From the NCBI GenBank assembly GCA_964397225.1, contig CAYNHY010000002.1:1-39722 (forward strand): a stretch of DNA of 39,722 bases. The letters run 5' to 3'. Below are positions 9,988-39,722 of the stretch, piece by piece (the first letter of the stretch is position 1; each line of letters opens with the position of its first letter). Under the pieces are notes generated by a model. The model was not told the DNA's origin. It searched no databases and worked only from the letters and a program-made list of their open reading frames with translations. Source of the stretch: an uncultured Ruminococcus sp. GTDB taxonomy: Bacteria > Bacillota > Clostridia > Oscillospirales > CAG-272. A program made the translations under genes and the position numbers.

Positions 9988-10002
9988 CATTCTTTTTTCA
10001 AA

Positions 10003-10137: not shown

Positions 10138-10190
10138 AAAGCAGTAGGGTCACAAAATGACCGAAAATATTTTCGAAAGAGGAGAAAATA

Positions 10191-16389: not shown

Positions 16390-16405
16390 CGGAGGCTGAG
16401 GCAAA

Positions 16406-17344: not shown

Positions 17345-17386
17345 GACACCGAAGACATCGAAATTTTACGGAAAGGAAGAACTCCC

Positions 17387-18172: not shown

Positions 18173-18210
18173 AATAAGCGTATTTGCGACAAAACAGCAT
18201 AGTATGGATC

Positions 18211-18239
18211 GGCGCACTTTTCCGGTGCGCTTTGATTTT
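18211..18239 (+). terminator. terminator-like hairpin between ftsL and the PBP gene
   Basis: The stem GCGCAC-TTTTCCG-GTGCGC (6 bp) is followed by TTTGATTTTC. It may be a partial terminator or attenuator inside the dcw cluster. Confidence 0.4.
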
Positions 18240-18321
18240 CTCGAATATCCCGCGCACACGGCAAATAAAATTGATAGCGGGAGCACCCGCGGACGTGCTG
18301 CGGGAATTACAGGAGAGCAGC

Positions 18322-20703: not shown

Positions 20704-20763
20704 TGCCGCCTTACGGAAGTTTAAGTTTCTTTTACGGTTAATTTAAGCTTTCGGAGGTAATAT

Positions 20764-22293: not shown

Positions 22294-22313
22294 AATGCAG
22301 AAAGGCCGAAAAA

Positions 22314-23810
22314 ATGAGCATTGAACTGAAACTTGTTGCTCCGTCCGTTGAAACGCTGTGCGGCGTTATCGGCGGAACGTGTGAGTGTATTGGAGAGATA
22401 GACACTGCTGTAAAGGTAAGAGGACTTACCACCTCATCCAAAGAGGCTGACCTTAACTGCGTATTTTGTGCCATAAAGGGAGAGCGGGTCGACGGCGCGG
22501 ACTTTATTTCCGACGCCGTGCTCCACGGAGCCGTTTGCGTTATAACGACACACCTTCCGGACAACGCACGCGCATGCGGTAAGCCGTTTTGTGCAATTAT
22601 CGTCGATGACGTGATTGACGCCATAGGTCGCTTCGCGGCGTGGTACCGCAACCATTCGAAGGCAAAGTTCGTTGCCGTCACGGGAAGCGTCGGAAAGACC
22701 ACCACAAAGGAAATGATAGCCTCCGTTGCCGCCTCGCGCTTTAAGACCCATAAGACGCGCGGAAACTACAACAACGAGCTCGGACTCCCGCTCACGATAT
22801 TTGAGCTGGCGCCCGATGACGAGGTGTCGGTGCTTGAGATGGGCATGAGTAATATCGGTGAGATTGAGCACATGTCTCTGATAGCGCGCCCGGATATCGC
22901 GATCGTTACGAATATCGGTACCTCGCACCTTGCCACGCTCGGCTCCCGCGAGAATATCTGCCGTGCAAAGCTTGAGGTGTGCGCCGGAATGACGAGAAAG
23001 GGTCGCGTGATACTCAACGGCGACGAGCCGCTTCTCCGTCGCGGCGGATTAGAAGTTCAGACACGTGTCAGCTATATGAGCGTGTACAACAGAAACGCCG
23101 AATACAGAGCGCTCAATATGAGAACCACCGCCAACGGTATACTGTTTGACATGATATACGATAACCGCGCGCTGACAAACATCGAGGTTCCCGTTCACGG
23201 TCGCCACAATGTTTACAATGCACTCGGCGCTTATGCCGTCGGAACGCTGCTCGGTATCGACGACACGCATATAAGACGCGGTCTGCTTGATTTCGTGGGA
23301 GCGGAAATGCGTCAGAGCATATACGAGCTCGGCGGGCTTACCGTCATCGACGACTGCTATAATGCAAGCCCCGAATCGATGCGTGCCGCACTCGACGTGC
23401 TTTCGTCTATTGCAAAGGGACGCAATGCGCGACCGCTCGCTCTCATCGGAGATATGCTTGAGCTCGGCGAATATTCACGTCTTATGCACGACCAGCTCGG
23501 ACAGTACGTAGCGCAGGTCGGCGTAAAGAAGCTCTTCTGCTACGGTCTGATGAGTGACGTTATCGCAGAGGCGGCAATAAAGAAGGGACTTCGCGCAGAG
23601 AATGTGTGCGTCTGCCTCGACACGCGTGACCCGCAGACAATGGCTGATATGATACTCAGCCTCTACGAGGACGGAGATGTGCTCCTTGTAAAGGCGAGCC
23701 GTGCAGTACACGCAGAGCGTGTTATCCAGTGTATCAGAAAGAAACTCGTAAAGAACAAGACCCGCCGCGCCTCTCACGATGCGACGGAGGACGGAAGGAA
23801 TTCGAAATGA
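22314..23810 (+). CDS. murF: UDP-N-acetylmuramoyl-tripeptide--D-alanyl-D-alanine ligase
   Basis: 498 aa. It has the motif GSVGKTTTKEM and Mur ligase middle and C-terminal domains. Its stop overlaps the mraY start (ATGA). Confidence 0.9.
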   Translation: MSIELKLVAPSVETLCGVIGGTCECIGEIDTAVKVRGLTTSSKEADLNCVFCAIKGERVDGADFISDAVLHGAVCVITTHLPDNARACGKPFCAIIVDDVIDAIGRFAAWYRNHSKAKFVAVTGSVGKTTTKEMIASVAASRFKTHKTRGNYNNELGLPLTIFELAPDDEVSVLEMGMSNIGEIEHMSLIARPDIAIVTNIGTSHLATLGSRENICRAKLEVCAGMTRKGRVILNGDEPLLRRGGLEVQTRVSYMSVYNRNAEYRALNMRTTANGILFDMIYDNRALTNIEVPVHGRHNVYNALGAYAVGTLLGIDDTHIRRGLLDFVGAEMRQSIYELGGLTVIDDCYNASPESMRAALDVLSSIAKGRNARPLALIGDMLELGEYSRLMHDQLGQYVAQVGVKKLFCYGLMSDVIAEAAIKKGLRAENVCVCLDTRDPQTMADMILSLYEDGDVLLVKASRAVHAERVIQCIRKKLVKNKTRRASHDATEDGRNSK

Positions 23811-24808
23811 ATTATAAGCTTATATTTGCCGCTGCGCTTGTGCTGACCTTTGTGCTGACTGTGCTCATCTCGAGACGCCTTATCCCTGCGCTGAAGAGCA
23901 GAAAAATGGGGCAGAAGATCCTTGATATCGGTCCGAGATGGCACAAAAGCAAGGAAGGAACTCCGACAATGGGCGGTCTTGCCTTCATTATATCGTCGCT
24001 TACGGTCGGAGCGGTGCTTTCGGTAATTATTGCGCTGAAGGATGGCGCCGAGACGGCGTGGCCGTTCGTGTTTACGCTCGCGCTCGGACTTGCGGGCGGA
24101 CTTATAGGCTGTATCGACGACGCGGCAAAGCTTCGCAATCAGAGAAACGACGGCTTGACAGCCTCGCAGAAGTTTCTGCTCCAGCTTGTCGCGGCTGCGC
24201 TGTACCTTTTCGGCATGTCGCTTGTCTGCAAGACGGGAACAGCCTTGCATATCCCGTATTTTGACGTAACACTTGAGCTTGGGGTCGGCTATTATGTGCT
24301 GTCGCTCATACTCATATGCGGTGTGATGAACAGCGTAAACCTGACGGACGGCATTGACGGCCTTGCCTCCTCGGTAACGCTCGCCGTCGGCGTTTTCTTC
24401 GCTGTCTGCGGCTTTTTCGGCGGCACGACGGATGCCTCTCTCGTTTCGCTCGGCGCAATACTTATAGGCGCGTGCGCTGGCTTTCTTGTGTACAATATCA
24501 ATCCCGCAAGGGTATTCATGGGCGACACGGGCTCGCTGTTCCTCGGCGGACTTGTCGTCGGCGGGGCGTATATGATGGGTGAGCCGCTTATCGTTATCGT
24601 TTGCGGACTCGTTTATATTATCGAAACGGCGTCGGTAATGCTTCAGGTGACATACTTTAAGCTGACGCACGGAAAGAGACTGTTCAAAATGTCTCCGATA
24701 CACCACCACTTTGAAAAGTGCGGCTGGTCGGAAAACAAGGTCGTTATTGTATTCACCTGTGCGACCGTGTTTTTTTCCGCGATAGCACTGCTGGGAGTCA
24801 TTAAATAA
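23807..24808 (+). CDS. mraY: phospho-N-acetylmuramoyl-pentapeptide transferase
   Basis: The start was re-assigned to MNYKLIFAAALV (ATG at 23807), with GGAAGGA upstream. It is polytopic, with motifs KEGTPTMGG, NLTDGIDGLA and HHHFE. Confidence 0.92.
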   Translation: MNYKLIFAAALVLTFVLTVLISRRLIPALKSRKMGQKILDIGPRWHKSKEGTPTMGGLAFIISSLTVGAVLSVIIALKDGAETAWPFVFTLALGLAGGLIGCIDDAAKLRNQRNDGLTASQKFLLQLVAAALYLFGMSLVCKTGTALHIPYFDVTLELGVGYYVLSLILICGVMNSVNLTDGIDGLASSVTLAVGVFFAVCGFFGGTTDASLVSLGAILIGACAGFLVYNINPARVFMGDTGSLFLGGLVVGGAYMMGEPLIVIVCGLVYIIETASVMLQVTYFKLTHGKRLFKMSPIHHHFEKCGWSENKVVIVFTCATVFFSAIALLGVIK

Positions 24809-24843
24809 GAAAAAGCTTAATTTGAAGGGACGGTGCAGCATGC

Positions 24844-26493
24844 ATGAATAATAACAAGGGCTACGGTCGTGCGGTGCGCCGTCTGTCCGATGCCGCGCCG
24901 TCGCGCGCGACGACTGACGGTGCGCACTCGCGTACATATTCCCCTGCGAGAAATATCAGCTCGCAGAGCACACCGCGACAGCCGCGTGCAAATGCGGGCA
25001 GCCGCCCCGGTGTCACACGAACCTCTTATCGCTCCGACAGCGCTCGCAGAGTGCGTGCGACGCGAGGCGAGAGCGCCGTGTACAGAAATTCGCAGCAAAG
25101 GCCTGCGACGCATACCGCAAGCGCGCGCAATGCCGCTGCACGCTCGAGTGCTCCGGTATTATACGGGAGAGAAGCGAGACTTGCAGAGCGTACCGACCGA
25201 CAGCTTCGCCGCCTTGAAAAAAAGGAGCAGCGGCTTGTCTCGGCAGAGCTTGAGTGGCAGTCCGAGGTCGAGCGAGTTCGCGGAGGCGTCGACAAGGTGA
25301 TGCTTGTCATAATCCTCATCCTTCTCGCGCTCGGCACGCTTATCATATACAGCGCCAGCTATCCTATCGGAATTTCATCCTACGATGACGGAATGTACTA
25401 CCTGAAGCGCCATCTGTTTTTCATGCTTCTCGGAGGCGCGGCGATGTTCGTAGCCTCCTATGTTCCGTATACCTGGTATAAAAAGTGGTTCGGCTTCGCG
25501 CTTTACGCACTCGCGGCGGTGCTTCTCGTTGTAGCGGCATTTGCCGGAGGCAACGACGGCACCGCGGTGTCGCGTTGGATATCGATAGGTCCCGTCCGCT
25601 TCCAGCCGTCGGAAATAATGAAGATAGCCCTTGTCATGCTGCTTGCATGGTATCTCGACAAATATGCCGACCGACTCAAAAGTCACAGAACGGTCGGTGA
25701 GAAAATAGAGCTTCTTCGAGACAAAAGACGCGGCGCCTTCTCAAGCCGCCTGTCAAAGGCGTTTCCGAGGAACGGCGGCACAGACAAACTCGGAACATAT
25801 CTGTACAATACATTTTTCCCGCTGTGCATAGTCGGCGGCTCATGCCTTCTCGTGCTCATAGGAAAGCACCTGTCGGGAACCGTGATCGTCGGCGTTATCG
25901 GACTTGCGATAATGCTTGTCGCGGGATGTCACGTTGCATACACCGTGCTGACAACGCTCGCTGTGGGAGTACCGGTTGTTGCAGTATATCTTATGTCAAA
26001 TTCATACGCCCTGCAAAGGGTGCTTACCTTTACCTCGGATAATGCGGATACGCTTGCCGAGAAGTGGCAGGCTACTCAGGGCGCGCTCGCAATAGGCTCT
26101 GGCGGACTGTTCGGCGTGGGCTTTGCGGAGAGCCGACAGAAGTTCGGCTACGTTTCCGAGCCCTACAACGATTTTATATTCAGTATATGGTGTGAGGAGT
26201 TCGGCTTTATCGGCGCAGCTCTCCTTATAGGGCTGTTCGTTGCGTTTATCTGGCGCGGCTGCGTTATTGCAATGCGTGCGCCTGACAAATATTCGATGCT
26301 TCTCGCCTTCGGTATCACGACACAGGTTGGAGTGCAGGCTGTGCTCAATATGATGGTCGTGTGCGGAGTGCTTCCGACGACGGGAGTCTCGCTCCCGTTT
26401 ATTTCCTACGGAGGAACGGCGCTCGCCGTGCTGATGGCGGAAATGGGAGTCCTTCTTTCGATATCGCGAAGGTCATACAGAAAAACGGCGTGA
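24844..26493 (+). CDS. ftsW: SEDS family peptidoglycan polymerase FtsW/SpoVE with about 150-aa basic N-terminal extension
   Basis: 549 aa as drawn. The conserved core begins near VDKVMLVIILILLALGTLIIYSASY. The C-terminal motifs are PTTGVSLPFISYGGTA. An alternative start at ATG 25300 (GGAGG 13 nt upstream) would remove the extension. Confidence 0.8.
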   Translation: MNNNKGYGRAVRRLSDAAPSRATTDGAHSRTYSPARNISSQSTPRQPRANAGSRPGVTRTSYRSDSARRVRATRGESAVYRNSQQRPATHTASARNAAARSSAPVLYGREARLAERTDRQLRRLEKKEQRLVSAELEWQSEVERVRGGVDKVMLVIILILLALGTLIIYSASYPIGISSYDDGMYYLKRHLFFMLLGGAAMFVASYVPYTWYKKWFGFALYALAAVLLVVAAFAGGNDGTAVSRWISIGPVRFQPSEIMKIALVMLLAWYLDKYADRLKSHRTVGEKIELLRDKRRGAFSSRLSKAFPRNGGTDKLGTYLYNTFFPLCIVGGSCLLVLIGKHLSGTVIVGVIGLAIMLVAGCHVAYTVLTTLAVGVPVVAVYLMSNSYALQRVLTFTSDNADTLAEKWQATQGALAIGSGGLFGVGFAESRQKFGYVSEPYNDFIFSIWCEEFGFIGAALLIGLFVAFIWRGCVIAMRAPDKYSMLLAFGITTQVGVQAVLNMMVVCGVLPTTGVSLPFISYGGTALAVLMAEMGVLLSISRRSYRKTA

Positions 26494-26529
26494 CATTGCC
26501 GCTCAAAGGAAAGGATACGTCAATACACA

Positions 26530-27666
26530 ATGAGAGTTATAATGACGGGCGGCGGCACGGGAGGTCATGTTAACCCCGCGCTTGCCATTGCCGAAACAAT
26601 TAAAAGAAACGAGCCCGATTCCGAGATAATCTTCGTCGGAACGGAGCGCGGTATCGAGAATAAGCTTGTTCCCGCGGCAGGCTTTGAGCTTCGTCATGTC
26701 GACGTTCGCGGTATTCGACGAAGCTTCTCTCCTGCGAATATCCGCGCGTTTTGGCTTGCGCTTACCTCGCCCTACAAGGCAAAGCGTCTTATCCGCGAGT
26801 TCAAGCCTGACGTTGTCATCGGCACGGGAGGCTATGTTTCGTGGCCGGTAGTTAAGGCGGCGTCAATGATGGGCGTGCCCTGCGCGCTCCACGAGTCGAA
26901 TGTGGCTCCGGGCGTTGCTGTACGCATGCTTCAAGGTAAGGTCGACCGCGTGTATCTGAATTTCGAGGCGACGGGTCGCTCGCTTCATTGCCCGGATAAG
27001 CTTCTCCGCGTCGGAAATCCGCTCGCAGGCGATTTCTCGCGCATGAGCCGCAAGGAGGCAAGAGAGGCGCTCGGCATTGAGGGCAAATACAAAAACGTTA
27101 TTCTCTCCTACGGCGGAAGCATGGGAGCGGAGAAGGTCAACGATGCGGTTCTCGAGGTGATGAAGAATTATTCCGCAAAGCACCCCGAGACCCTGCACAT
27201 TCACGCAACGGGCTCGATAGAGTGGCAGATATGCCGCGGACAGTTTGCAAAGGCGGGACTTGACAAATACCCGAACCTTGAGCTTGTCGAGTATATTTAC
27301 GACATGCCGGTGAAGATGGCGGCAGCTGACCTTATAATCTGCCGCGCGGGAGCGCTGACCGTTTCCGAGCTTGCAAAGTGCGGAAAGTGCCCGATATTCA
27401 TACCGTCTCCGAATGTTACGGAGAATCATCAGTATAAGAACGCGCGAGTGCTCGCCGATGCCGGTGCGGCATTTGTGTTCGAGGAGCGACAGCTTGCCGA
27501 GAACAGCGCGATCCTCACGCAGACGGTGGCAGGGCTTATGTCGCCGGAGGGTGAGGCGGAGCGCGCTCAGATGAGCGAGAAAATACGCGCCTTCGCGCTT
27601 GATGACGCAAATCGCCTGATATATAACGATATCAGACGCCTTGTCGACGGCGCGCGACGCAAATAA
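26530..27666 (+). CDS. murG: undecaprenyldiphospho-muramoylpentapeptide beta-N-acetylglucosaminyltransferase
   Basis: 378 aa. It has the motif TGGGTGGHVNPALA and the C-terminal segment ICRAGALTVSEL...PSPNVTENHQ. Confidence 0.92.
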   Translation: MRVIMTGGGTGGHVNPALAIAETIKRNEPDSEIIFVGTERGIENKLVPAAGFELRHVDVRGIRRSFSPANIRAFWLALTSPYKAKRLIREFKPDVVIGTGGYVSWPVVKAASMMGVPCALHESNVAPGVAVRMLQGKVDRVYLNFEATGRSLHCPDKLLRVGNPLAGDFSRMSRKEAREALGIEGKYKNVILSYGGSMGAEKVNDAVLEVMKNYSAKHPETLHIHATGSIEWQICRGQFAKAGLDKYPNLELVEYIYDMPVKMAAADLIICRAGALTVSELAKCGKCPIFIPSPNVTENHQYKNARVLADAGAAFVFEERQLAENSAILTQTVAGLMSPEGEAERAQMSEKIRAFALDDANRLIYNDIRRLVDGARRK

Positions 27667-27689
27667 CCCGAACAAAAGGAAGATTTAAG

Positions 27690-28688
27690 ATGACCGAGAA
27701 ACAGCAAAGCTTCGAACGGGACTTTTACGTCTCGGCTCATGCACGCCCCACTGCGGTCTTCGGCAGCATCGGCAACAACCGACGCTCTTCGGCATTCAAG
27801 AACAGCTCGGACAGCCGCGGAGCGCGCGGCAACGGCACGTCTCGAGGACATACCGCCGAAAACGAAAGGGCGAGAGCACGGCGAGGCGGACGCAAGGTTG
27901 ACGAGGCAAGGCGCAGCGCGGGGGAGCGGAAACGGACGGTACACCGCCGCCGTGCGCTTGTCCTGTTTGCGGTGTGCGTGCTTCTCCTCGCACTGATCGC
28001 GGGAGTGATCTATCGGTTTTTATTCGTTGTAAAATACATAAACATCAGCGGCAGCAGCGTTTATTCCTCCGACGAGATAATGTCGGCGGGAGGGCTTTCC
28101 GAGGGAGTGAATCTTTACTCCTTCCGCTCAAGCACGCTCGAGTCGAGCGTGACCTTCAGGTGTCCGTATATTTCGCATCTGACGCTCGATCGACAGCTCC
28201 CCGATACGGTCAATATAAGCGCGACCGAGGAGACGGCGCGCTATTACGCCGTAATATACGGAGAGTACAAGCTTCTCTCCGACAGCCTTCGCGTGCTCGG
28301 CACGGTAACGCAGGATGCGCTGCCGGAGGGGCTAATAAAGCTTAAGCTTCCGACCGTGAGCTACGCTGTGACCGGGCGGCAGATAGCGTTTGCCTCAGAG
28401 CGACGCATGAGCGACATAAAGCAGCTGCTTTCGGATATCTCGCAGTCGGAGCTTGCCGACAGGCTCAACATTGTCGATGTGCGCGACAAGTATGACGTCC
28501 GTGCGCTGTGCGACGGGCTGAGACTGCTGCTTATCGGCGAAAACGCGGACACGTCGTACAAGCTTCGAGTAGCCGCGCGCGTGCTTGAGGACGAGATGTT
28601 TGCCGAGAACGAAAAAAAGTACCGCGTAGACCTGACCGTGAGAGGAAAAACAGGCGTGCTCGAAATAGACGACGTCGGGCTTGATTGA
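27690..28688 (+). CDS. ftsQ: cell division protein FtsQ/DivIB (POTRA domain) with Arg-rich cytoplasmic tail
   Basis: 332 aa. RBS AAAGGAAG is present. An approximately 88-aa basic N-terminus precedes one TM helix (ALVLFAVCVLLLALIAGVIY), which is followed by a POTRA-like segment (YINISGSSVYSSDEIMSAGGLSEGVNLYSF). It is positioned between murG and ftsZ. Confidence 0.8.
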   Translation: MTEKQQSFERDFYVSAHARPTAVFGSIGNNRRSSAFKNSSDSRGARGNGTSRGHTAENERARARRGGRKVDEARRSAGERKRTVHRRRALVLFAVCVLLLALIAGVIYRFLFVVKYINISGSSVYSSDEIMSAGGLSEGVNLYSFRSSTLESSVTFRCPYISHLTLDRQLPDTVNISATEETARYYAVIYGEYKLLSDSLRVLGTVTQDALPEGLIKLKLPTVSYAVTGRQIAFASERRMSDIKQLLSDISQSELADRLNIVDVRDKYDVRALCDGLRLLLIGENADTSYKLRVAARVLEDEMFAENEKKYRVDLTVRGKTGVLEIDDVGLD

Positions 28689-28833
28689 TGTTATACAAAC
28701 GCATAACAGGCAAAATTAAGTTATGCATGCGCCTAAAACGAGCGTTTTTTGCTCAACAACGTCTGAAATCGCTGACAAATCAAAAAAATTCGCGTCTTTT
28801 TGAGTTTTTGCCTAAAATATTTTTCAAAAGCTC

Positions 28834-28862
28834 TTGAAAAAATCCTGAATTTAGTATATTAT
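28834..28862 (+). promoter_or_regulatory. sigma-A promoter (TTGAAA-17-TATTAT) dedicated to ftsZ
   Basis: TTGAAA at 28834-28839 and TATTAT at 28857-28862, within a 240-nt AT-rich gap upstream of ftsZ. Confidence 0.55.
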
Positions 28863-28928
28863 ATATAGTAAGTAATAATTCGAACCGTAAGCATACCAAG
28901 AAGTAAAAATCTTAAGGAGGCAACTGCA

Positions 28929-30050
28929 ATGCCATTTGAATTTGACGATAACTATCAGAGCAAGGTCAACATAAAGGTCGTCGGCGTCGGCGGCGGCGGA
29001 AACAACGCCATCAACCATATGATTGTGACCAACGTCCGCGGTGTTGACTTCATTTCCGTTAATACCGATAATCAGACACTTCTTCACTCGAGCGCGACCA
29101 TTAAGGTTCCGATCGGTGAGAAGATCACAAAGGGACACGGAGCGGGTGCTAACCCCGAGATCGGTGAGCACGCCGCAGAGGAGAATATCGAGGAGATCAA
29201 GAACGCACTCAGCGGAGCTGAGATGGTCTTCGTTACTGCCGGAATGGGCGGCGGTACGGGAACAGGTGCCGCACCTGTCGTTGCTCGCGTAGCACAGGAG
29301 ATGGGCATCCTTACCGTAGCTATCGTCACAAAGCCCTTCGCATTTGAAGGTAAGAAGAGAATGGAGCAGGCAGAGCGCGGTATCGCCAACCTCAGCAAGT
29401 ACGTTGACTCTCTTATCATAATCCCGAATGAGAAGCTCAAGGAGATCGGTGAAAAGATCACACTTATGAATGCCTTTGCCGTTGCGGACGACGTCCTCAG
29501 CCACGGTGTACAGAGCATTTCAGAGCTTATCAATGTTCCTCAGTACCTCAACCTCGACTTCGCGGACGTTACGACCGTTATGAAGAACGCAGGCTACGCT
29601 CACATGGGCATCGGTGAGGGAAGCGGCAAGGACAAGGCAGAGACTGCGGCAATGAACGCTATCTCAAGCCCCCTGCTCGAGACCACTATCGCAGGCTCGA
29701 TGGGTATCCTCGTCAGCATCACCGCATCTCCCGACATTGAGCTTAATGATATCGACACCGCATCCTCTCTCATCGCGAGCCAGGCTCACGAGGACGCAAC
29801 CGTAATTTGGGGTGTTGCATTCGATCCCGAGCTTGAGGACAAGATGAAGATCACCATCATCGCTACCGGCTTTGACAACAGCAGCGAGATGTTTGAGATG
29901 AAGAAGGGAAACGCTGAGGCGGCTCCCGCAAAGGCTGCCGAGCCCGCAAAGAAGGAAGAGCTTCCCGAGCTTGCGGAATCCAATGTTTCCGACGACGATA
30001 TCTCTGAGATAATCAATATGCTCCGTAAGAGCAAGGAAGCCGGAAGATAA
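28929..30050 (+). CDS. ftsZ: cell division GTPase FtsZ
   Basis: 373 aa. RBS AAGGAGG is present. Motifs are VVGVGGGGNNAINHM and GGGTGTGAAPVVA, and a conserved C-terminal peptide is present (DDDISEIINMLRKS). Confidence 0.97.
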   Translation: MPFEFDDNYQSKVNIKVVGVGGGGNNAINHMIVTNVRGVDFISVNTDNQTLLHSSATIKVPIGEKITKGHGAGANPEIGEHAAEENIEEIKNALSGAEMVFVTAGMGGGTGTGAAPVVARVAQEMGILTVAIVTKPFAFEGKKRMEQAERGIANLSKYVDSLIIIPNEKLKEIGEKITLMNAFAVADDVLSHGVQSISELINVPQYLNLDFADVTTVMKNAGYAHMGIGEGSGKDKAETAAMNAISSPLLETTIAGSMGILVSITASPDIELNDIDTASSLIASQAHEDATVIWGVAFDPELEDKMKITIIATGFDNSSEMFEMKKGNAEAAPAKAAEPAKKEELPELAESNVSDDDISEIINMLRKSKEAGR

Positions 30051-30248: not shown

Positions 30249-30521
30249 TTAGATGAATATTCGCGCACCGACGAGCAGCAGCGCAAGCTGCGCGACCATG
30301 ATCGCCGGTATGCCGAGCATGAATTTCGCGTGAAGCGTTTTGTGTCGGATCAGCTGCATTGTAATGTACATGGCGACAGAGCCGCCGAGCGCGCTGAGAA
30401 TCAACAGACGTCGCTCGGATACTCGCCGTGCGTGGCGAGCGGCTGCGCGCTTGTCGTGAATTGTAATTATCACCGATATTACGGACACAGCGATAAAATA
30501 TATGAGTCCCGCGCGTGCCAT
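30249..30521 (-). CDS. DUF1294 family small membrane protein
   Basis: About 90 aa. The motif block HDKRAA...RRVSERRLLILSALGGSVAMYITMQLIRHKTLHAKF is typical of DUF1294. The ATG at 30521 overlaps the upstream stop (TGATG). The track starts it one codon earlier, at a GTG. Confidence 0.75.
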   Translation of the reverse strand: MARAGLIYFIAVSVISVIITIHDKRAAARHARRVSERRLLILSALGGSVAMYITMQLIRHKTLHAKFMLGIPAIMVAQLALLLVGARIFI

Positions 30522-31558
30522 CACAGATATTTACCCGACTCGTTCTGCGCGAGAGCGTCGCAGCGCTCGTTGTACGGATGCCCAGCGTGTCCCTTGACCC
30601 AATTGAAGCTTACGCTGTGCAGCTCGCACAGCTCGAGCAGCTGCTCCCAGAGATCGGGATTCAGCGCGGGCGAGCCGTCTCCCTTTTTCCAGCCCTTCTT
30701 CCTCCACGAACGCGCCCAGCCCTTCGTAATGCCGTCGCATACATAGCGCGAGTCGGTCGTGAGCTCCACGCGGCAAGGTTTTTTTAATTTAGACAGCGCA
30801 GTAATGACAGCGGTCAGCTCCATACGGTTGTTTGTCGTGTCGGCGCAGCCGCCGCACAGCTCAAGCTCTCGCCCGTCGGCTACAAGTATCGCACCCCAGC
30901 CGCCGGGTCCCGGATTCTTGCGGCACGAGCCGTCGGTGTAGATGCTGACGCTTCTCGGCGAGCTTGCGGCAGCGCTTTTCGGTTCGCTCTCGCCGACACT
31001 GCCTTTCGCGGAGCAGTCGGAGGTGTTTTTTTTACCTGATTTTTCGCTCGGACTGTTAGCGCGCGCCTTCGCGGCGTAGGGCAAGTGCAGCTGCGCGCCG
31101 TCAAGCACAGCCTCGGTGAGCGTGCCGCCGTCGGCGTACACAAGCTTCAGTGAGAAAAACGGCTGCGCCCTGTCCTCGATAAGGTCGAGAAATATATGGT
31201 CTCCCTCCCACAGCTCGAGCTTTCTGAGTCTGCTTCGTTCGACCCACTCAAGCTCGCCCTCGTCGCAGTCGCATAGCTCTCCTTGAAAATCGTTGCAGGT
31301 GAAGAGATGCATGTATTCGCACTCGTCGCCGTAAACAAAGGTCACAATGCCGCGAAACGCAAGCGTAATTGCCGAAAGACCGGTTTCCTCGCGTATCTCA
31401 CGGCGAATGCAGTCCTCCGGCGACTCGCCGAACTCGAAATGCCCACCGATGCCGATCCACTTGTCGCGGTTCAGGTCGTGCTCCTTCTTTACGCGGTGCA
31501 GCATCAGATACGAGCTGCCTTTTTCTATGTAGCAAAGAGTTGAATTTGTCATGCTCAT
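30521..31558 (-). CDS. fusion protein: N-terminal Nudix hydrolase (MutT-like) + C-terminal RNase HI
   Basis: 345 aa. The Nudix box GGHFEFGESPEDCIRREIREETGL is intact. A low-complexity linker follows. The RNase HI domain retains the DEDD residues in YTDGSC, NNRMELTAV, TTDSRY and NERCDALA. Confidence 0.85.
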   Translation of the reverse strand: MSMTNSTLCYIEKGSSYLMLHRVKKEHDLNRDKWIGIGGHFEFGESPEDCIRREIREETGLSAITLAFRGIVTFVYGDECEYMHLFTCNDFQGELCDCDEGELEWVERSRLRKLELWEGDHIFLDLIEDRAQPFFSLKLVYADGGTLTEAVLDGAQLHLPYAAKARANSPSEKSGKKNTSDCSAKGSVGESEPKSAAASSPRSVSIYTDGSCRKNPGPGGWGAILVADGRELELCGGCADTTNNRMELTAVITALSKLKKPCRVELTTDSRYVCDGITKGWARSWRKKGWKKGDGSPALNPDLWEQLLELCELHSVSFNWVKGHAGHPYNERCDALAQNESGKYL

Positions 31559-32478: not shown

Positions 32479-33564
32479 ATGAATAATAAGAAGCTTTACA
32501 TAATCAAGATCGGAAGCAGCTCGCTTACCGGGAAAAACGGCGATATTTCGCGTGAGAAAATACAGACTATCGTGCGCCAGGTCGCAGACGTTCGTGACGC
32601 AGGTCACGACTGCGTTATAGTTACCTCGGGCTCGATTGCCGCGGGCTTTCGCGCACTCGGCTACACTACACGTCCAACCTCCGTTGCCGCAAAGCAGGCG
32701 TCGGCAGCCGTCGGACAGGGACTGCTCATGGAGGAGTATGAGAGATTCTTCGCGGAGCGCGGATACGTTTGCGCTCAGATACTTCTCACACGCGGTGACT
32801 TTACAGACAAGCGCAGATACAAAAACGCATTTGCAGCACTCGAGATACTTCTCAGCCGAGGGGCTGTGCCGATAATCAACGAGAACGATACCATAGCCGT
32901 TGAGGAGCTAAGGCTCGGAGACAACGACACGCTCTCCTCGCAGGTCGCCGCAATGCTTCATGCGGACATGCTGATACTGCTTACGGATACCGACGGGCTT
33001 TATACCGCGAACCCCGCAAGCGACCCCACGGCTCGCCATATTCCGACAGTCGACCGGATCACTCCCGAGATCGAGCGCTACGCGGGCGGCGCCGGAACGA
33101 AAAACGGCACCGGCGGCATGATAACGAAGCTTCGCGGAGCGTCCCTTGCGACGCGTGCCGGAGTCCCTGTGTTCATCTGCTCGTCAAAGGATGAAAATGT
33201 TATAACAAACGCGGTTGCGGGAAGCGCCAAGGGCACGCTCTTTAAGGCGGACGGAAGTCTCAGAACGCGCCTCCAGTGGATGGCGTTCTACGCGCCGTCA
33301 AAGGGAAATATTTATGTTGACCGAGGTGCTGCTGAGGCTGTGGCACATCACGAAAAAAGTCTGCTTTGCGCGGGAGTTACCGCGGCGGAGGGGGATTTTG
33401 CAAGCGGAGATGTAGTTCGCATCCTGACGGCGGGAGACCACGTGTGCCTCGGGCGGGGAATTGCGTCATTCTCCAAAAACGAGATATGCGACATGATAAA
33501 CACGGACGACAGAAAAAGCTGTGTCGTTATAAGAAAGGACGACCTTGTTCTCACGACGCTGTAA
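32479..33564 (+). CDS. proB: glutamate 5-kinase (with C-terminal PUA domain)
   Basis: 361 aa. Motifs are IIKIGSSSLT, VIVTSGSIAAG, NENDT and GTGGMITKL. Confidence 0.93.
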   Translation: MNNKKLYIIKIGSSSLTGKNGDISREKIQTIVRQVADVRDAGHDCVIVTSGSIAAGFRALGYTTRPTSVAAKQASAAVGQGLLMEEYERFFAERGYVCAQILLTRGDFTDKRRYKNAFAALEILLSRGAVPIINENDTIAVEELRLGDNDTLSSQVAAMLHADMLILLTDTDGLYTANPASDPTARHIPTVDRITPEIERYAGGAGTKNGTGGMITKLRGASLATRAGVPVFICSSKDENVITNAVAGSAKGTLFKADGSLRTRLQWMAFYAPSKGNIYVDRGAAEAVAHHEKSLLCAGVTAAEGDFASGDVVRILTAGDHVCLGRGIASFSKNEICDMINTDDRKSCVVIRKDDLVLTTL

Positions 33565-33597
33565 GGAAGATATACGAGCGAAAGGAAGCTTTTTAAT

Positions 33598-34845
33598 ATG
33601 AACGAGATACTTGTAAAGCAGGCGCAGAGCGCGAAGACGGCAGCCGGCGCACTTGCGTGCGCGTCAACAGACGAGAAAAACCGCGCGCTCATGCTTATTG
33701 CCGACGCGCTCGAGTCGCGCGTTGACGAGATACTTGAGGCGAATGGCAGAGACGTTGCCGCAGCCGTCGGGAACGGCACCTCCGCGGCGCTTATCGACAG
33801 GCTCACGCTTAACGAAAAGAGAATTGCCGACATTGCACTCGGCGTGCGTCAGGTCGTCGCTCTCCCCGACCCCGTAGGCGAGGTCATCGAGGAGACGACA
33901 AGACCGAACGGTCTTGTGATAAAGCGCGTTCGCGTGCCGCTCGGCGTTATCGGAATGATATACGAGGCGCGCCCGAATGTTACGGTCGATGCCGCTTCGC
34001 TTTCGCTGAAGGCGGGAAGCGCCGTCATGCTTCGCGGAAGCTCGAGCGCCCTTGAATCGAACAAAAAGCTTACCGAGATAATGCGCGACGCGCTCGCAGA
34101 GAGCAGCCTTCCGTGCGACGCGGTGTCGCTGGTCGACGGACGCTCGCACGATGTGGTCGATGAGATGATGTCGCTTCGCGGCTACATTGACCTTATGATA
34201 CCGCGCGGAGGTGCGGGGCTCATCAGACGCGTCGTTGAAAATTGCCGTGTGCCCGTGCTCGAGACGGGAGTCGGAAACTGCCATATTTACGTTGACCGCG
34301 ACGCGGATGCCGAAATGGCTGAGAATATCCTCATAAACGCGAAGACTCAGCGCCCCGCGGTCTGCAACGCCGCCGAGACTCTGCTCGTTCACGCGTCCCG
34401 CCCCGAGCTTGCAGTAAGGCTCTGCGACGCACTTCGCGCCTCCGGCGTTACCGTACACGGCTGCCCGAGGCTTTGTGCCCTTGTTCCCTATGCCGTTCCG
34501 GTCACGGAGAGTGAGCTTGCGAGTGAATTTCTTTCGCTCGATATGGCTGTGAAGCTTGTCGACAGCATAGATGACGCCATCGCGCATATCAGACGCTACG
34601 GCACGGGACATACCGAGGCGATAATCACAAATGACCGCTCGGCGGCTGACAGATTCATTCGCGAGGTCGACGCGGCGGCTGTGAATGTCAATGCCTCGAC
34701 ACGCTTCACCGATGGCTTCGAATACGGCTTCGGCGCGGAGATCGGTATTTCAACACAGAAGATGCACGCTCGCGGCCCGCTCGGACTTCGTGAGATAACC
34801 TCGTACAAGTTCATCGTCGAGGGCACGGGACAGATAAGAAAGTGA
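33598..34845 (+). CDS. proA: glutamate-5-semialdehyde dehydrogenase (gamma-glutamyl phosphate reductase)
   Basis: 415 aa. It is of the aldehyde dehydrogenase fold, with motifs VIGMIYEARPNVT, CNAAETLLVH and ASTRFTDG. Confidence 0.93.
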   Translation: MNEILVKQAQSAKTAAGALACASTDEKNRALMLIADALESRVDEILEANGRDVAAAVGNGTSAALIDRLTLNEKRIADIALGVRQVVALPDPVGEVIEETTRPNGLVIKRVRVPLGVIGMIYEARPNVTVDAASLSLKAGSAVMLRGSSSALESNKKLTEIMRDALAESSLPCDAVSLVDGRSHDVVDEMMSLRGYIDLMIPRGGAGLIRRVVENCRVPVLETGVGNCHIYVDRDADAEMAENILINAKTQRPAVCNAAETLLVHASRPELAVRLCDALRASGVTVHGCPRLCALVPYAVPVTESELASEFLSLDMAVKLVDSIDDAIAHIRRYGTGHTEAIITNDRSAADRFIREVDAAAVNVNASTRFTDGFEYGFGAEIGISTQKMHARGPLGLREITSYKFIVEGTGQIRK

Positions 34846-34855
34846 GGCGAGGTAA

Positions 34856-35665
34856 ATGAAAATCGAAGGAAAGCTCGCCTTTATCGGCGTCGGCTTCATG
34901 GCGGGCGCAATGATAGACGGAATACTCGGCGCGGGACTTATCGCGCCGGAGAATATATACTGCATAAACGACGCCTTCCCCGACGTCGCGAAAAGCGCGG
35001 CGGAGAGTCACGGAATAGCCTGCCGCACGGCGGAGAGCCTTGCGGAGTGCGACACCGTGGTATTCGGGATCAAGCCCCAGGTGCTTCCGGAGGCGCTTTT
35101 GATGTACGGAGAGTATCTTACCTCCGACAAGCTCTATTTTTCGATAATGGCGGGAATATCGACCGCGCGTCTCGAGGATGCGCTCGGCGGCGCACGCGTC
35201 GTTCGCTTTATGCCGAATATGCCGCTGTCGGTCGGACGCTCGGCTACCGTATACGCGCTCGGAAGCGCTGCGGGTGACGCCGAGGCGGCACTTGCGGAGG
35301 CTGTTTTTGCTCCGCTCGGAATAATCAGACGCGTCGAGGAGGACATGATCTCGGCATATACGGCGCTTTCCGGAAGCGGTCCGGCATATATTTGCCGCAT
35401 GGTCGAGTCCATGGCTCGCGCGGCGGTCACGCTCGGAATTCCCGAGGACGCGGCGGAGGCATTTGCTGTGCAGACGCTCGTCGGAACGGCGCAGGTCATC
35501 GATCAAAACGGAATTTCTCCCGCGACCCTTCGTGCGAGAGTTACCTCGAAGAAGGGAACGACGGAGGCTGCGCTCAACTCGCTCAATGCATCCGATTTTG
35601 ACGTGACGGTCGAGGACTGCATGAAGGCATGCCTCAGACGCAGCGACGAGCTTGCAAAGGCGTAA
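34856..35665 (+). CDS. proC: pyrroline-5-carboxylate reductase
   Basis: 269 aa. It begins with the Rossmann N-terminus FIGVGFMAGAM and carries the C-terminal motif VTSKKGTTEAAL. Confidence 0.9.
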   Translation: MKIEGKLAFIGVGFMAGAMIDGILGAGLIAPENIYCINDAFPDVAKSAAESHGIACRTAESLAECDTVVFGIKPQVLPEALLMYGEYLTSDKLYFSIMAGISTARLEDALGGARVVRFMPNMPLSVGRSATVYALGSAAGDAEAALAEAVFAPLGIIRRVEEDMISAYTALSGSGPAYICRMVESMARAAVTLGIPEDAAEAFAVQTLVGTAQVIDQNGISPATLRARVTSKKGTTEAALNSLNASDFDVTVEDCMKACLRRSDELAKA

Positions 35666-35718
35666 GACTTGAGCTTAGTTATCAATTGCCGCCGAACGGC
35701 GGAGAAACGGAGAATATT

Positions 35719-36921
35719 ATGGCAGAAAAATATCCTTTTTCAATGTGGGTGTACAACCCCACGTCGGACTTTACTACCGATGAGGTCGGGGTGTGGAAGG
35801 AATGCGGAATGACAGTTCCGATGACACCCTCGATCCCATGCAGCGAGGAGGGCGTTCGCGCAGTAAAGCCCTTCCTTGACCGCGCAGCGGAGCTTGGAGT
35901 GAAGATGATCGTCAATTGCGCCGGTCTTTCCTACGGAGACCTCAAGTATATCAGCGAGGAGCAGCTTGAACAGAATCTTCGCACAGTATACGAGCCCCTC
36001 AAGGGTCACCCCGCGCTTTACGGCTTCTTCATCGGTGATGAGCCGAGCGATAAGGAGTCGCTTGAGGCAACAGCCAAGTGCTTTGAGATCCATCACCGCG
36101 TAGCTCCCGAGCTGAAAGCATATGTGAACCTTTGCGGCGACACCCCCGAGCTTTCAAATGAGGTTCTCGGAGGTCGCACACTCGAGGAGTACTTCAAGTA
36201 TATCCGTGAGAAGGGCGCAAGCTTTGCAAGCCTTGACCTTTACGGAAGCATGATCAACGAGAAGACTCTCAGAGATGATATTTACTCACTTAAGGTAGTC
36301 GTCGGTGCAGCCGAGAAGGCTGGTCTCGACATTTGGGCGAACACGCTCTCGAGCGCACACTATGCATTCAGAAAGCCGAACTATCACGAGCTTCTCTGGC
36401 AGATAACCGTTCCCGCAGCCTGCGGCTGCCGCGGTAATATTTGGTTCCGTTTCTACGATCGCAAGACCGGACACGAGTACTTCGGCTCTCCTATCGACGA
36501 GTATGGCAATAAGACTGAGGCATACTACGATATGCTCCGCGCGCAGCGCCGTTTTGCCGATCATTACGGCGAGATAATGCCGACGCTTCGCAGAAAGAGC
36601 ACATATATGCTTGGCGACAACATCACCGATGTTTTCCCGCGCTTTAAGGACGGCGATCACGACCTTGTCAAGGTCAGTGCGGTCTGGGATGACATTCTCG
36701 TCAGCTTCTTCGAGGATGACAACGGACAGGAATACATTTGTGCCGTTAACGCAATGACGAAGATACACGGCTCGGTGAATATCGAGTTCGACCCCGAAAA
36801 ATGTGCCGTTCGCGAGGTCACATTCAACGGCGCGGATATCGGAGGAAGCCCTGAATCCGGTAAGGAAAATATCCCGCTGTACGCCGGACAGATGCGCCTG
36901 TTCAGAATAGACAGAAAGTAA
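35719..36921 (+). CDS. hypothetical protein, possibly glycoside-hydrolase-like TIM barrel
   Basis: The start was re-assigned to MAEKYPFSMW (ATG at 35719), with GGAGA upstream. It is 400 aa. The segment YGFFIGDEP resembles clan GH-A strand-4 motifs, but I cannot assign a family from sequence alone. Confidence 0.5.
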   Translation: MAEKYPFSMWVYNPTSDFTTDEVGVWKECGMTVPMTPSIPCSEEGVRAVKPFLDRAAELGVKMIVNCAGLSYGDLKYISEEQLEQNLRTVYEPLKGHPALYGFFIGDEPSDKESLEATAKCFEIHHRVAPELKAYVNLCGDTPELSNEVLGGRTLEEYFKYIREKGASFASLDLYGSMINEKTLRDDIYSLKVVVGAAEKAGLDIWANTLSSAHYAFRKPNYHELLWQITVPAACGCRGNIWFRFYDRKTGHEYFGSPIDEYGNKTEAYYDMLRAQRRFADHYGEIMPTLRRKSTYMLGDNITDVFPRFKDGDHDLVKVSAVWDDILVSFFEDDNGQEYICAVNAMTKIHGSVNIEFDPEKCAVREVTFNGADIGGSPESGKENIPLYAGQMRLFRIDRK

Positions 36922-37039: not shown

Positions 37040-37314
37040 CTTATTCAAATGCGTTGATGGAATTATTCCTCCGCTTTGCCACATTTCAGAGAGTCGGCGG
37101 CAGGTGCGAGCCGATATTGGCGGTGGATGTGAAGTCTCATTTCGGAGCAGAGTCGTCGAATTACAGTAAACGGCTACGGAGGACCCCGTTATCATGGTCG
37201 GGAGCTTGCCTGAGCTCTGACGAGTTGACCGTTTTTCTTGACGGTAAACAGGGTGGTACCGCGAAGCATTTCGTCCCTGAAATCGGATTATCCGATTTCA
37301 GGGCTTTTCTTTTT
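37040..37314 (+). promoter_or_regulatory. T-box riboswitch leader (probable Leu CUC specifier; Val GUC alternative)
   Basis: Elements seen are the AG box AGAGAG (37088-93), the distal-loop-like GGCAGGTGCGAG, the F box CCGTTA (37186-91), and the T-box core AGGGTGGTACCGCG (37250-63). The antiterminator shares CCCT with a 13-bp terminator, CCCTGAAATCGGA-TTA-TCCGATTTCAGGG, plus CTTTTCTTTTT (37275-37314). Confidence 0.85.
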
Positions 37315-37363
37315 CGCAGACGCCGCAGGCAGAATATTTGATTGAATTCGAAAGGAAAATAAC

Positions 37364-38748
37364 ATGAACAAGGTCAAAATTGCCGATGCCACGCTTTGCC
37401 GTGAAGACAGAAGCTTCAGCTTTAAGGAGAAGCTTGAAATCATCCGCCAGCTTGATCGCATGAAGTGCGACATTATCGAGCTGCCCGAGATCGCAAACCC
37501 GAAAAGTGATATTCTGATGGTGCGTACAGCGTCATCCTTTGTGAAAAACAGCACGCTCTCCGTCGCTGCGGGAAGCTCCGCCGAGAGCATCGAAAATGCC
37601 GCTGCCGCACTCAGCTCGGCGTCCCGTGCGAGAATTAAGATAACACTCCCCACATCGTCTGTCGGTATGGAGTACTTCATGATGAAGAAGCCCGCCGCAA
37701 TGCTTGAGTGGATCGAAAAGGCGGTAAAGCTTGCCGTGTCTCACGTCGCCGAGGTTGAGTTCTGCGCCGTTGATGCGACAAGAGCCGAAAGGAGCTTCCT
37801 TGACGACGCTATCCGCACGGCAGTTGGCGCCGGAGCGTCGTATGTCAGCGTTTGCGACAGCGCCGCCGAAATGCTCCCTGATGCATTTGCAGCCTTCACA
37901 GAGAGCGTTGCAGCCTGTGCCGGCGTTCCCGTCGGTGCATCCTGCTCCGATAAAAACGGTCTGCCGTAGCCTCCCTTACGATGGCGGCTTGCCGCGGTGT
38001 GTCGTTTGTCAAGTGCGCCGTTGACGGTGAGAGCGCGCAGACCGAGACCTTTGCGACACTTGTCAAAAACTGCGGAGAGAGCTTCGGCATCTCCTCCGAC
38101 ATTACCTATACCGAGCTCCACCGTATCACCGAGCAGCTTCGCCGCATTACCGGAAGCGCAAAGAGCGAGAAGTCGGTGAGCGCACCGTCGGCAGACGAAA
38201 ACGACGGAGTCAGCCTTGATGCTTCCGACACCGTCGAAAGCGTTTCCACCGCTGTCGCACGACTCGGCTACGACCTGTCCGATGAGGACTGCGCCCGCGT
38301 TCACGAGGAGATCGGACGCGTCGGTGAGAAGAAGAGGGTCGGAGGTGCGGAGCTTGAGGCGATAGTCGCCTCGGTAGCGCTCCAGGTGCCCGATTCCTAC
38401 AAGCTTGTCAGCTATGTTGTAAACAACGGTAATATTATCAATTCAAGCGCGCAGATCACACTCGAGCGCGACGGACGCACACTTGTCGGCGTCTCTCTCG
38501 GTGACGGTCCGATCGACGCTGCCTTCCGCGCGATAGGTCAGGTCACGGGAAGCAGCTATGAGCTCGATGACTTCATGATTCGCTCCGTAACGGAGGGTCA
38601 GGAGGCTATCGGAAACGCAGTCGTAAAGCTTCGCTTCGAGGGCAGACTGTATTCCGGAAACGGCGTGTCCACGGACATCGTCGGCGCAAGCATCAGAGCA
38701 TACATAAACGCCGTAAACAAGATCGTTTACGAGGAGCATAACGCGTAA
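37364..38748 (+). pseudogene. LeuA (2-isopropylmalate synthase)-like gene with degenerate active site, intact LeuA C-terminal regulatory domain, and one frameshift near 37963
   Basis: Two track ORFs (37364-37969 and 37981-38748) are collinear with LeuA. ...SCSDKNGL (frame 1) continues as AVASLTMAACRGVSFVKCAVDGESAQTE (frame 2), matching HCHNDLG-AVAN...ING-GERAGN. The second ORF has no RBS. The C-terminal segment GDGPIDAAFRAI...GVSTDIVGASIRAYINAVNK is the LeuA dimer/regulatory domain. This could equally be an intact gene with a 1-nt assembly error. Confidence 0.7.
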
Positions 38749-38766
38749 AGCAGGGAGGAGAACGAA

Positions 38767-39722
38767 ATGAAGCTTTCTTTTTCAACAAAGGGCTGGCACG
38801 AGTGCAGCTTTGAGGATTTTTGCAACACTGCGCACGACCTCAAGTTCGACGGAATCGAACTGCATAACGTAAACGGTGCTCTCTTTACCGATCGCGACGG
38901 CGCGTTTCACGATTATTCTGCGGCGGCGACACTGCGTATGCTTTATGACCGCGAGCTTACGATCCCCTGTATCGATACTATCTGCGATATTTCCGCAGAG
39001 GGCGTGACTGATGAGGCTCTCGCCGAGACCGAGAGATGCTTTGAAATCGCACGCTTCTTGCACATTCCGTACATTCGCTTCAGAAGTTGCCGCTGTGACG
39101 ATGACGAGCGCGGAGTCGCGCGCGTCGAGGCGTTCATCGAGCAGGTGCTCCCGCGTGCCGAGGAGCTCGGCATCACGCTTCTTCTCGAGACTTCCGGCGT
39201 TTATCGCGACAGCGCACGCCTTTGCGAGACGCTTGACCGCTTCGCAAGCGACAGCGTCGGCGCACTTTGGAATGTTTCCGAGGCATACTTTGCCGAGAAA
39301 GATCCCGAAGTCATCATAAAGAATCTCGGTGCGTACGTGCGCCTTGTACACTTCAGCGATATCGACGCGACCGACGGCGTAGCCGAGTATCGCCTCGCCG
39401 GCGAGGGTGAGCTTCCCGTTCGTGAGATCGTCTCCGCGCTTAGAAGCGTCAACTACGACGGATTCGTTTCGCTCGTCTGGGATCCCGCATGGTGCGAGGA
39501 GCTTGACGACATGGAGACCGTCCTCACACAGTTCCAGAACTATATGCGTCAGTTCGGAGATCCCTCTCAGAACGAGAAGAACTTCTACTACAACGAGACT
39601 CACACGGGTCGCTTCGTCTGGAAAAAAGACGATCTTATCGACCTCACGTTCTCCGAGGTACTCGACCGCATGGTTGAAGATTTTCCCGATCAGTACGCGT
39701 TTAAGTATACAACTCTCGATTA
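38767..39722 (+). CDS. xylose-isomerase-like TIM barrel (sugar phosphate isomerase/epimerase family) fused to the N-terminus of an AMP-dependent (adenylate-forming) ligase; 3' end beyond the window
   Basis: My own translation from ATG 38767 (RBS GGGAGGAG) stays open to the window end: MKLSFSTKGWHECSFEDFCNTAHDLKFDGIELHN...LLLETSGVY...VRLVHFSD...FVSLVWDP..., then ...DLTFSEVLDRMVEDFPDQYAFKYTTLD. That last part resembles the start of acyl-CoA synthetase-type enzymes. It is absent from the ORF track because it has no stop codon in the window. Confidence 0.7.
   Translation, partial: MKLSFSTKGWHECSFEDFCNTAHDLKFDGIELHNVNGALFTDRDGAFHDYSAAATLRMLYDRELTIPCIDTICDISAEGVTDEALAETERCFEIARFLHIPYIRFRSCRCDDDERGVARVEAFIEQVLPRAEELGITLLLETSGVYRDSARLCETLDRFASDSVGALWNVSEAYFAEKDPEVIIKNLGAYVRLVHFSDIDATDGVAEYRLAGEGELPVREIVSALRSVNYDGFVSLVWDPAWCEELDDMETVLTQFQNYMRQFGDPSQNEKNFYYNETHTGRFVWKKDDLIDLTFSEVLDRMVEDFPDQYAFKYTTLD

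Follow-up and report, generated by a model that had tools for sequence, protein, structure and literature searches.

What does a protein do in which a triosephosphate isomerase (TIM) barrel runs, in a single reading frame, into an acyl-CoA ligase, and why does its gene follow a T-box leader and a gene resembling leuA, which encodes 2-isopropylmalate synthase? This question is raised by the 3' end of a 39,722-nucleotide stretch of DNA from an uncultured Ruminococcus sp. (assembly GCA_964397225.1, contig CAYNHY010000002.1, positions 1 to 39,722 of the forward strand), which we call the window. A preliminary description, made from the letters alone, had proposed a bifunctional enzyme that couples an isomerase-type barrel to carboxylate adenylation in an undescribed pathway. 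We find that the operon is widespread, clearly regulated and partly unexplained. The fusion is best filed as an acyl-CoA ligase that is unusual for its accessory domain, has a pseudoenzyme as partner and is under T-box (riboswitch) control, and the core of its chemistry is probably ordinary. As a tentative reading, preferred here but held with less than even confidence, we propose that the operon encodes a leucine-starvation-induced branched short-chain acyl-CoA ligase system in which a catalytically dead LeuA might serve as leucine sensor.

The barrel-ligase fusion

The features of the fusion gene in the window are as follows.

38746-38748, + strand: TAA stop codon of the upstream LeuA-like gene, read directly in the sequence
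38753-38760, + strand: ribosome-binding site GGGAGGAG, 6 nt 5' of the ATG, read directly in the sequence
38767, + strand: ATG of the fusion open reading frame (ORF), after an 18-nt spacer that follows the upstream TAA
38767..39561, + strand: xylose-isomerase-like TIM barrel, fusion residues 1-265 (Pfam, AlphaFold/Foldseek, profile alignment and residue counts)
39562..39636, + strand: conserved linker YYN..HTG.FVWKKD.LID, fusion residues 266-290 (family alignments; low predicted local distance difference test score, pLDDT, in the model)
39637..39722, + strand: start of the adenylate-forming ANL (acyl-CoA ligase) domain, fusion residues 291-318, ended by the window edge (aligns to residues 291-319 of the orthologue L021)

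Direct reading of the sequence bears out the start codon, its 18-nt distance from the LeuA-like stop and the ribosome-binding site given in the preliminary description, as well as a frame of 318 codons that stays open to the window edge, up to base 39720 of 39722. This plus-strand ORF is missing from the ORF listing because the listing excludes frames that run off the end of their source. The antisense ORF at 38782-39603 is a shadow ORF, and the Pfam scan gave no match to it. The closest database homologue of the fusion product has an E value of 7e-151, and the fusion ORF is therefore far above chance. Judged by its relatives, the window ORF is the 5' 38% of a predicted gene of about 835 codons. 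The further claim that the gene is translationally linked to the LeuA-like gene holds as regards close spacing and co-transcription; since the two genes do not overlap in the window, translational linkage itself is merely suggested.

The junction between barrel and ligase lies inside the window, which contains the entire barrel, the linker and the first ~28 ligase residues, all in one frame. The last 25 residues of the window product, TFSEVLDRMVEDFPDQYAFKYTTLD, belong to the stretch that an alignment with 23 homologues shows to be the most conserved in the family, and in these homologues the stretch runs on past the window end as DYTRTY..FRDDVD and then into the AMP-binding domain. Pfam AMP-binding gave no match on the window fragment with its ~28 ligase residues. 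The full-length orthologue L021 (834 aa), to whose residues 1-319 the window product aligns without a gap, carries AP_endonuc_2 at residues 20-238, AMP-binding at 304-690 (PF00501, E = 7.6e-93) and AMP-binding_C at 741-816 (PF13193, E = 6.7e-18). Of the three domains for which scans had been suggested, PF01261 matches in the window itself and PF00501 and PF13193 match in L021, and the ligase N-terminus that had been suspected at the end of the ORF coincides with the start of the orthologue's ligase domain.

One might ask whether the two domains are fused in this genome at all, because the window ends at codon 318 and the remainder of the gene lies beyond it; a stop codon just past the edge could be followed by a separate ligase gene. 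We give this alternative scarcely any credence. The barrel ends near residue 262 and residues 291-318, in the same frame, are already ligase, and a stop beyond the window would therefore truncate the ligase rather than separate two genes. An uninterrupted fusion ORF of 829-845 codons is present in 59 of 86 homologous loci, most of the others being cut by contig ends, and together with the junction in the window this upholds the single polypeptide that had been proposed.

The family is large. In a scan with one genome per species, relatives of the fusion turned up in at least 587 species genomes, and a search with the ligase domain yielded over 100 full-length proteins (829-841 aa), which their sources name only 'AMP-binding protein' or 'AMP-dependent synthetase'. 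Fragments of at most 555 aa, many ending at the P-loop (~495 aa), had suggested a hotspot of recoding or misassembly. This candidate was rejected as an artefact of the candidate set of the first search, because of the full-length proteins found with the ligase domain and the 59 uninterrupted loci.

Among known enzymes, the ligase part comes closest to the PRK12583/ACSF2/YngI-like ligases. The NCBIfam model PRK12583 (NF009233), a fatty acid CoA ligase, aligns end to end with residues 291-832 of L021, and all ANL core motifs, from the A3 P-loop through A5, A7 and the A8 hinge to the catalytic Lys of A10, which are located past the end of the window, are found in the orthologues: across 59 of them, conservation is 95% or higher for YTSGTTGFPKG, YGQTE, GWLHTGD, GRLKDMIIRGGENIYP and PMNAAGK. 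On this comparison the ligase is intact and strongly constrained in the orthologues. Unlike the ligases of that model, the fusion has a 290-residue N-terminal TIM barrel and its gene follows a Leu T-box and a gene for a dead paralogue of LeuA; the curated cut-off, 832 bits, is reached neither by L021 (649.7 bits) nor by distant fusions (775 and 536 bits). With this best NCBIfam match below its cut-off, no curated family names the fusion. Literature searches on the fusion, the pseudo-LeuA and genes for the conversion of isovalerate to leucine found nothing relevant, and the fusion indeed appears to be uncharacterised, as had been supposed, in that neither a curated family nor a paper was found to name it. 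Across the NCBIfam and literature searches, the same was true of descriptions of the dead LeuA partner and of the operon. Sequence searches of the PDB returned only generic or uncharacterised matches for the barrel, the ligase and the amidohydrolase encoded downstream in many homologous loci, and none for the LeuA regulatory domain.

Leucine control and the LeuA-like partner

Upstream of the fusion gene, the window contains the following features.

37045..37281, + strand: T-box leader (Rfam RF00230, 103.2 bits against a gathering threshold of 93, E = 7e-22)
37136-37138, + strand: specifier codon CUC (Leu), located by the cmscan alignment and confirmed in the sequence itself
37252-37263, + strand: T-box sequence GGTGGTACCGCG, within the leader
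37274..37318, + strand: intrinsic terminator, hairpin CCCTGAAATCGGA/TCCGATTTCAGGG followed by CTTTTCTTTTT, read directly in the sequence
37364..37969, + strand: 5' part of the LeuA-like gene, a degenerate HMGL-like barrel (Pfam HMGL-like, E = 1.4e-19)
37964..38748, + strand: 3' part of the LeuA-like gene, in the -1 frame, with linker and allosteric (leucine-binding) domain (Pfam LeuA_dimer)

The leader has every hallmark of a leucine-class T-box, namely the Rfam score, a Leu specifier, the T-box sequence and a terminator. About 54 homologous loci have the same leader directly 5' of their LeuA-like gene. When the specifiers of these leaders were parsed by a pattern anchored on the AGAGA motif, a Leu codon was found in all 51 that could be parsed (CUC in 41, CUG in 9 and CUU in 1). 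The specifier codon changes while the amino acid stays constant, which is good evidence that the operon is controlled by uncharged tRNA-Leu.

In the operon, a Leu T-box comes first, then the LeuA-like gene and the TIM-ANL fusion, usually with an Amidohydro_2 gene after it. The LeuA-like gene lies 5' of the fusion in 79 of 80 genome loci, and the association of T-box and LeuA-like gene with the fusion, recognized previously in the window, is thus kept across about 80 loci. Intergenic gaps in the homologous operons are mostly -4 to +7 nt, and in at least 37 of 58 loci the fusion is followed, about as closely, by an Amidohydro_2 gene with intact HxH/H/D ligands.

The LeuA-like protein, encoded at 37364-38748 of the window and at 8624-9997 of L021, shares with LeuA its two-domain layout, an intact allosteric domain and, as for many leuA genes, control by a Leu T-box. 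PF08502 LeuA_dimer matches its 3' part with an E value of 3.2e-30, over model positions 5-130 of 131, and the allosteric domain keeps the GDGPIDA loop as well as the residue that corresponds to E. coli G462, both of which are invariant in the family. Changes of G462 make LeuA resistant to feedback. Unlike LeuA, the partner has lost the catalytic motifs: alignment to E. coli LeuA, PDB 3rmj and PDB 3ewb revealed that R13 and D14 (DTTLRDGEQ), H202 and H204 (HxH), the GERAGN loop and the whole HxSGIHQDG subdomain are absent. Mean pairwise identity in the LeuA-like family is 71% for the regulatory domain and 46% for the barrel. The protein scores under every NCBIfam LeuA cut-off and is called 'hypothetical' or 'regulatory domain-containing' by NCBI. 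Taken together, it looks like a pseudoenzyme whose regulatory domain has been kept as a sensor.

In the window, one base is missing at about 37961-37966 (CTG[G]CC), which creates a TAG at 37967-37969 and breaks the LeuA-like gene in two, with ORFs of 201 and 255 aa. A comparison of reading frames found the gene intact in all 64 full-length homologues. The frameshift reflects a genuine pseudogene lesion or else an error of sequencing.

The degenerate barrel and the downstream amidohydrolase

The assignment of residues 1 to about 270 to the AP_endonuc_2 barrel family, made in the preliminary description, is well founded: Pfam PF01261 matches fusion residues 22-238 with an E value of 7.5e-20 and 72.1 bits against a gathering threshold of 31.1, and AlphaFold predicts a (beta/alpha)8 barrel for the window fragment (pLDDT 84.4). 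The nearest solved relatives found by Foldseek are the isomerase Art22, the dehydratase AsbF and ketose 3-epimerases (DPEase), with E values of 7e-14 to 1e-10, template-modelling (TM) scores of 0.66-0.78 and identities of 14-21%. A precedent for a barrel fused to a second enzyme domain was also among the Foldseek matches, the QuiC1-type barrel joined to an HPPD-like domain (PDB 5hmq); partner domain, chemistry and domain order all differ from those of the fusion described here.

In these enzymes, four metal-binding and catalytic residues, Glu-Asp-His-Glu, lie at the ends of strands 5-8. We located the corresponding positions by barrel-profile alignment to Art22, AsbF, MJ1311 and SCO6571, and in the numbering of the fusion family they are E141, D169, H195 and E237. 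The window protein aligns with PF01261 barrels such as Art22, AsbF (3-dehydroshikimate dehydratase) and the D-psicose/D-tagatose 3-epimerases in fold and at all four positions. It differs from them in its low identity, its fusion to a ligase and its tetrad, E141-N169-H195-V237, in which two of the four canonical residues are lost. It also has Leu at position 193, where 58 of 60 homologues have His, a substitution unique to the window.

The tetrad varies across the family. Among 60 fusions, E-N-H-V was found in 23, including most of the clade of the window protein, E-D-H-E in 20 and K-D-H-E, which marks another clade, in 4. The distant fusions P0439 and P0502 keep E-D-H-E, as do 42 of 61 stand-alone barrel relatives, unnamed proteins of ~270 aa with weak matches to ketose 3-epimerases. 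Since these stand-alone relatives and distant fusions retain the tetrad, the ancestral barrel was probably catalytic, and its site has been lost repeatedly within the fusion clade, the window included. The barrel is also the least constrained part of the protein, with a mean pairwise identity of 54% versus 79% for the ANL ligase.

What, then, of a bifunctional enzyme? In this alternative, the barrel as isomerase, epimerase or dehydratase and the Amidohydro_2 protein as hydratase, decarboxylase or lactonase would act on a keto or hydroxy acid that the ligase activates, in an undescribed multi-step route to a leucine precursor that perhaps replaces LeuCD or LeuB. The canonical tetrad in a third of the fusions, in the two distant fusions and in most stand-alone relatives speaks for it, as do further barrel residues that are invariant in the fusion family (W10, E31, C68, D70, D198, E213 and W238), the intact metal ligands and translational coupling of the amidohydrolase gene, and the control of the operon by leucine. 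Against it stand the E-N-H-V tetrad of the window protein and most of its clade, the K-D-H-E of another clade and the relaxed constraint on the barrel. When tetrad state was compared across loci with the presence of the amidohydrolase or of a 2-oxoisovalerate:ferredoxin oxidoreductase (VOR), no relation to either was found. Moreover, the LeuA-like protein would be unable to make isopropylmalate, judging from its missing motifs, and the operon itself has no conserved redox enzyme. We consider the alternative unlikely. Of the bifunctional isomerase-ligase proposed in the preliminary description, the genuine fusion in one polypeptide stands; for the window member, with E-N-H-V, L193 and a fast-evolving barrel, the isomerase role is not supported.

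The same substitutions, together with the frameshift in the LeuA-like gene, could be taken to mean that the locus is the decaying remnant of a leu operon, functionless in this genome, and in-frame stops or frameshifts in six homologues (L002, L003, L005, L075, L087 and L088) would be in keeping with such decay. This seems very improbable to us in view of the conservation of the system, with relatives in at least 587 species genomes, an intact fusion ORF in 59 loci, and 79% and 71% identity in the ligase and the LeuA regulatory domain, respectively. In the window, T-box, terminator and ribosome-binding site are intact, and a frameshift of a single base could be a sequencing error.

A proposed route to leucine and the genomic surroundings

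Fibre-degrading Clostridia of the rumen and gut use branched-chain fatty acids as growth factors, and the physiology of the conversion of these acids to branched-chain amino acids has been known for sixty years, while the genes are barely annotated. Ruminococci reportedly convert isovalerate to leucine by reductive carboxylation (Allison and Bryant, 1960s). In our preferred reading, that of a leucine-starvation-induced ligase, transcription of the operon would require uncharged tRNA-Leu. The ligase would activate isovalerate, its putative substrate, to isovaleryl-CoA; VOR might reductively carboxylate this to 4-methyl-2-oxopentanoate, and IlvE might transaminate the latter to leucine. The dead LeuA would be a leucine-sensing regulatory partner of the ligase, and in the lineage of the window the barrel fused to the ligase would have a scaffolding or docking role instead of isomerase activity. 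HisZ, a dead paralogue, serves as regulatory subunit of HisG, a first pathway enzyme. By analogy, the proposed logic here is the same, that of a dead ligand-sensing paralogue adjoining the enzyme of the committed step.

The route would be the leucine branch of the classical rumen conversion of branched fatty acids to branched amino acids. With regard to the 'undescribed pathway' that had been suggested, no description was indeed found; the idea of wholly new chemistry fares less well, the leucine branch of known reductive carboxylation seeming likelier. A more specific form of the proposal is possible although doubtful: that the dead LeuA sensor and the Leu T-box exert two-level feedback on a TIM-barrel-tagged isovalerate-CoA ligase, which would be the missing leucine-specific module of the reductive-carboxylation route in gut and rumen Clostridia. 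Bolder still would be a variant in which barrel, ligase and amidohydrolase jointly provide a new way to a leucine precursor in place of LeuBCD.

The genes next to the operon bear on this proposal. Among the loci with sufficient DNA upstream, well over half have the operon immediately 3' of a cluster that runs in the same direction and encodes an HTH-cupin-ANL ligase (helix-turn-helix, HTH) whose best NCBIfam match is MbcS, a CbiA/ParA-like ATPase, a ferredoxin, VorABC and IlvE, of which VorB and IlvE exceed their NCBIfam cut-offs. VOR genes adjoin the operon in at least 23 of 40 such loci. MbcS, the methylbutyryl-CoA synthetase of Staphylococcus aureus, resembles the fusion in the activity proposed for it, by which an exogenous branched short-chain acid is converted with ATP to a CoA ester, and an MbcS-like gene stands in the adjacent cluster; unlike the fusion, MbcS belongs to a separate ANL subfamily, has no TIM barrel and serves lipid synthesis. 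MbcS activates 2-methylbutyrate and isobutyrate, and isovalerate poorly (PMC10026030), which leaves room for a separate isovalerate ligase.

The MbcS-like neighbour (L021 1454-3742 and equivalents) has an N-terminal HTH and cupin module, and both ligases of the cluster thus carry extra, possibly regulatory, N-terminal domains. In L003, a T-box with an Ile (AUC) specifier (7852-8092, - strand) stands back to back with the T-box of the Leu class that precedes the LeuA-like and fusion genes, and it heads a divergent cluster of two MbcS-like ligases, a CbiA-like gene, a ferredoxin and VOR. This arrangement suggests amino-acid-specific control of branched-acid uptake routes.

The precedent of MbcS, in which branched acids are activated for lipid synthesis, also lends some weight to another use of the product. 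The ligase might mainly prime iso-branched membrane fatty acids with isovaleryl-CoA or another branched acyl-CoA and so spare scarce leucine, an idea that fits induction by uncharged tRNA-Leu and the absence of adjacent VOR and ilvE genes in the window and several loci. As the main function we regard this as quite improbable, since VOR and IlvE often adjoin the operon in the same orientation and the retained LeuA regulatory domain points to amino-acid feedback. Leucine synthesis and lipid priming are not mutually exclusive fates.

Several points weigh against the proposed leucine route. The substrate specificity of an ANL enzyme cannot be read from its family membership. The route needs neither the TIM barrel nor the Amidohydro_2 enzyme, the latter with an intact site and coupled in at least 37 of 58 loci, and because a third of the fusions and the distant ones retain E-D-H-E, some members of the family may have a catalytic barrel. 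In the window, moreover, the LeuA-like gene is frameshifted, and VOR and ilvE do not adjoin the operon; proB, proA, proC and an unknown gene lie upstream, and the VOR cluster must therefore be elsewhere if it is present.

The operon occurs in gut and rumen Clostridia, with relatives in at least 587 species-level genomes and thousands of metagenomic proteins, and is annotated just as 'AMP-binding protein' and 'hypothetical protein'. If the proposed route is correct, the leucine-specific entry enzyme would receive a name, metagenomes could be searched with a marker gene for isovalerate-dependent leucine supply, and the dead LeuA would be a clean case of a pseudoenzyme reused as allosteric sensor. 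If the barrel and the amidohydrolase are catalytic, the operon would reveal new chemistry in leucine metabolism.

The remainder of the window provides the following context, in which sigE and spoIIGA indicate that the host is a sporulating Firmicute.

72-146: tRNA-Thr(TGT)
353-1958: sigE and spoIIGA
7114-12878: two large surface proteins with surface-layer homology (SLH) domains
16400-30050: dcw cell-division cluster, with ftsZ last
30521-31558, - strand: NUDIX (residues 12-121) and RNase H (residues 202-340) in one 345-aa ORF
32479-35665: proB-proA-proC
35629-36921: ORF with a weak, sub-threshold DUF4434 match, overlapping the end of proC by 37 nt

Some homologues of the fusion gene are irregular. 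An in-frame TGA occurs at codon 498 (NNGK-TGA-IGDRMGL) in both L003 (11492-11494) and L087 (about 1637-1639), which share 77% nucleotide identity; their nearest relatives have TGT or TGC (Cys) at this codon, and coding conservation continues downstream of the TGA, a signature of the selenocysteine/cysteine kind in an acyl-CoA ligase. Despite the alignment with Cys, selenocysteine was not upheld. The folding energies of the sequences 3' of the TGA rank 33rd and 53rd among 75 homologues and thus indicate no special hairpin resembling a selenocysteine insertion sequence (SECIS), and the aligned position is variable across the family (Tyr, Cys, Ser, Asn, Ala or Thr). In the parts of a 2026 selenoproteome review (PMC13188914) reached by a term search, an acyl-CoA ligase type was not found. 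Other interruptions are a TAA one codon before the Cys codon in L088, a TAG at 3948-3950 (codon 556) in L005, a frameshift upstream of the P-loop in L002 and a stop at codon 320 in L075. Such stops and frameshifts in metagenomic homologues may be pseudogenes, assembly errors or recoding.

Assemblies also often break at the ANL P-loop stretch YTSGTTGFPKGVML, where the contigs of P0012, P0023, P0027, P0043, P0065 and P0093 (ENA and NCBI) end and where L004 has a 141-N scaffold gap (11437-11577), likely because this segment is near-identical among paralogous or co-occurring ligase genes. The contig end of P0001 is an Illumina adapter, translated as IGRASCRERV.

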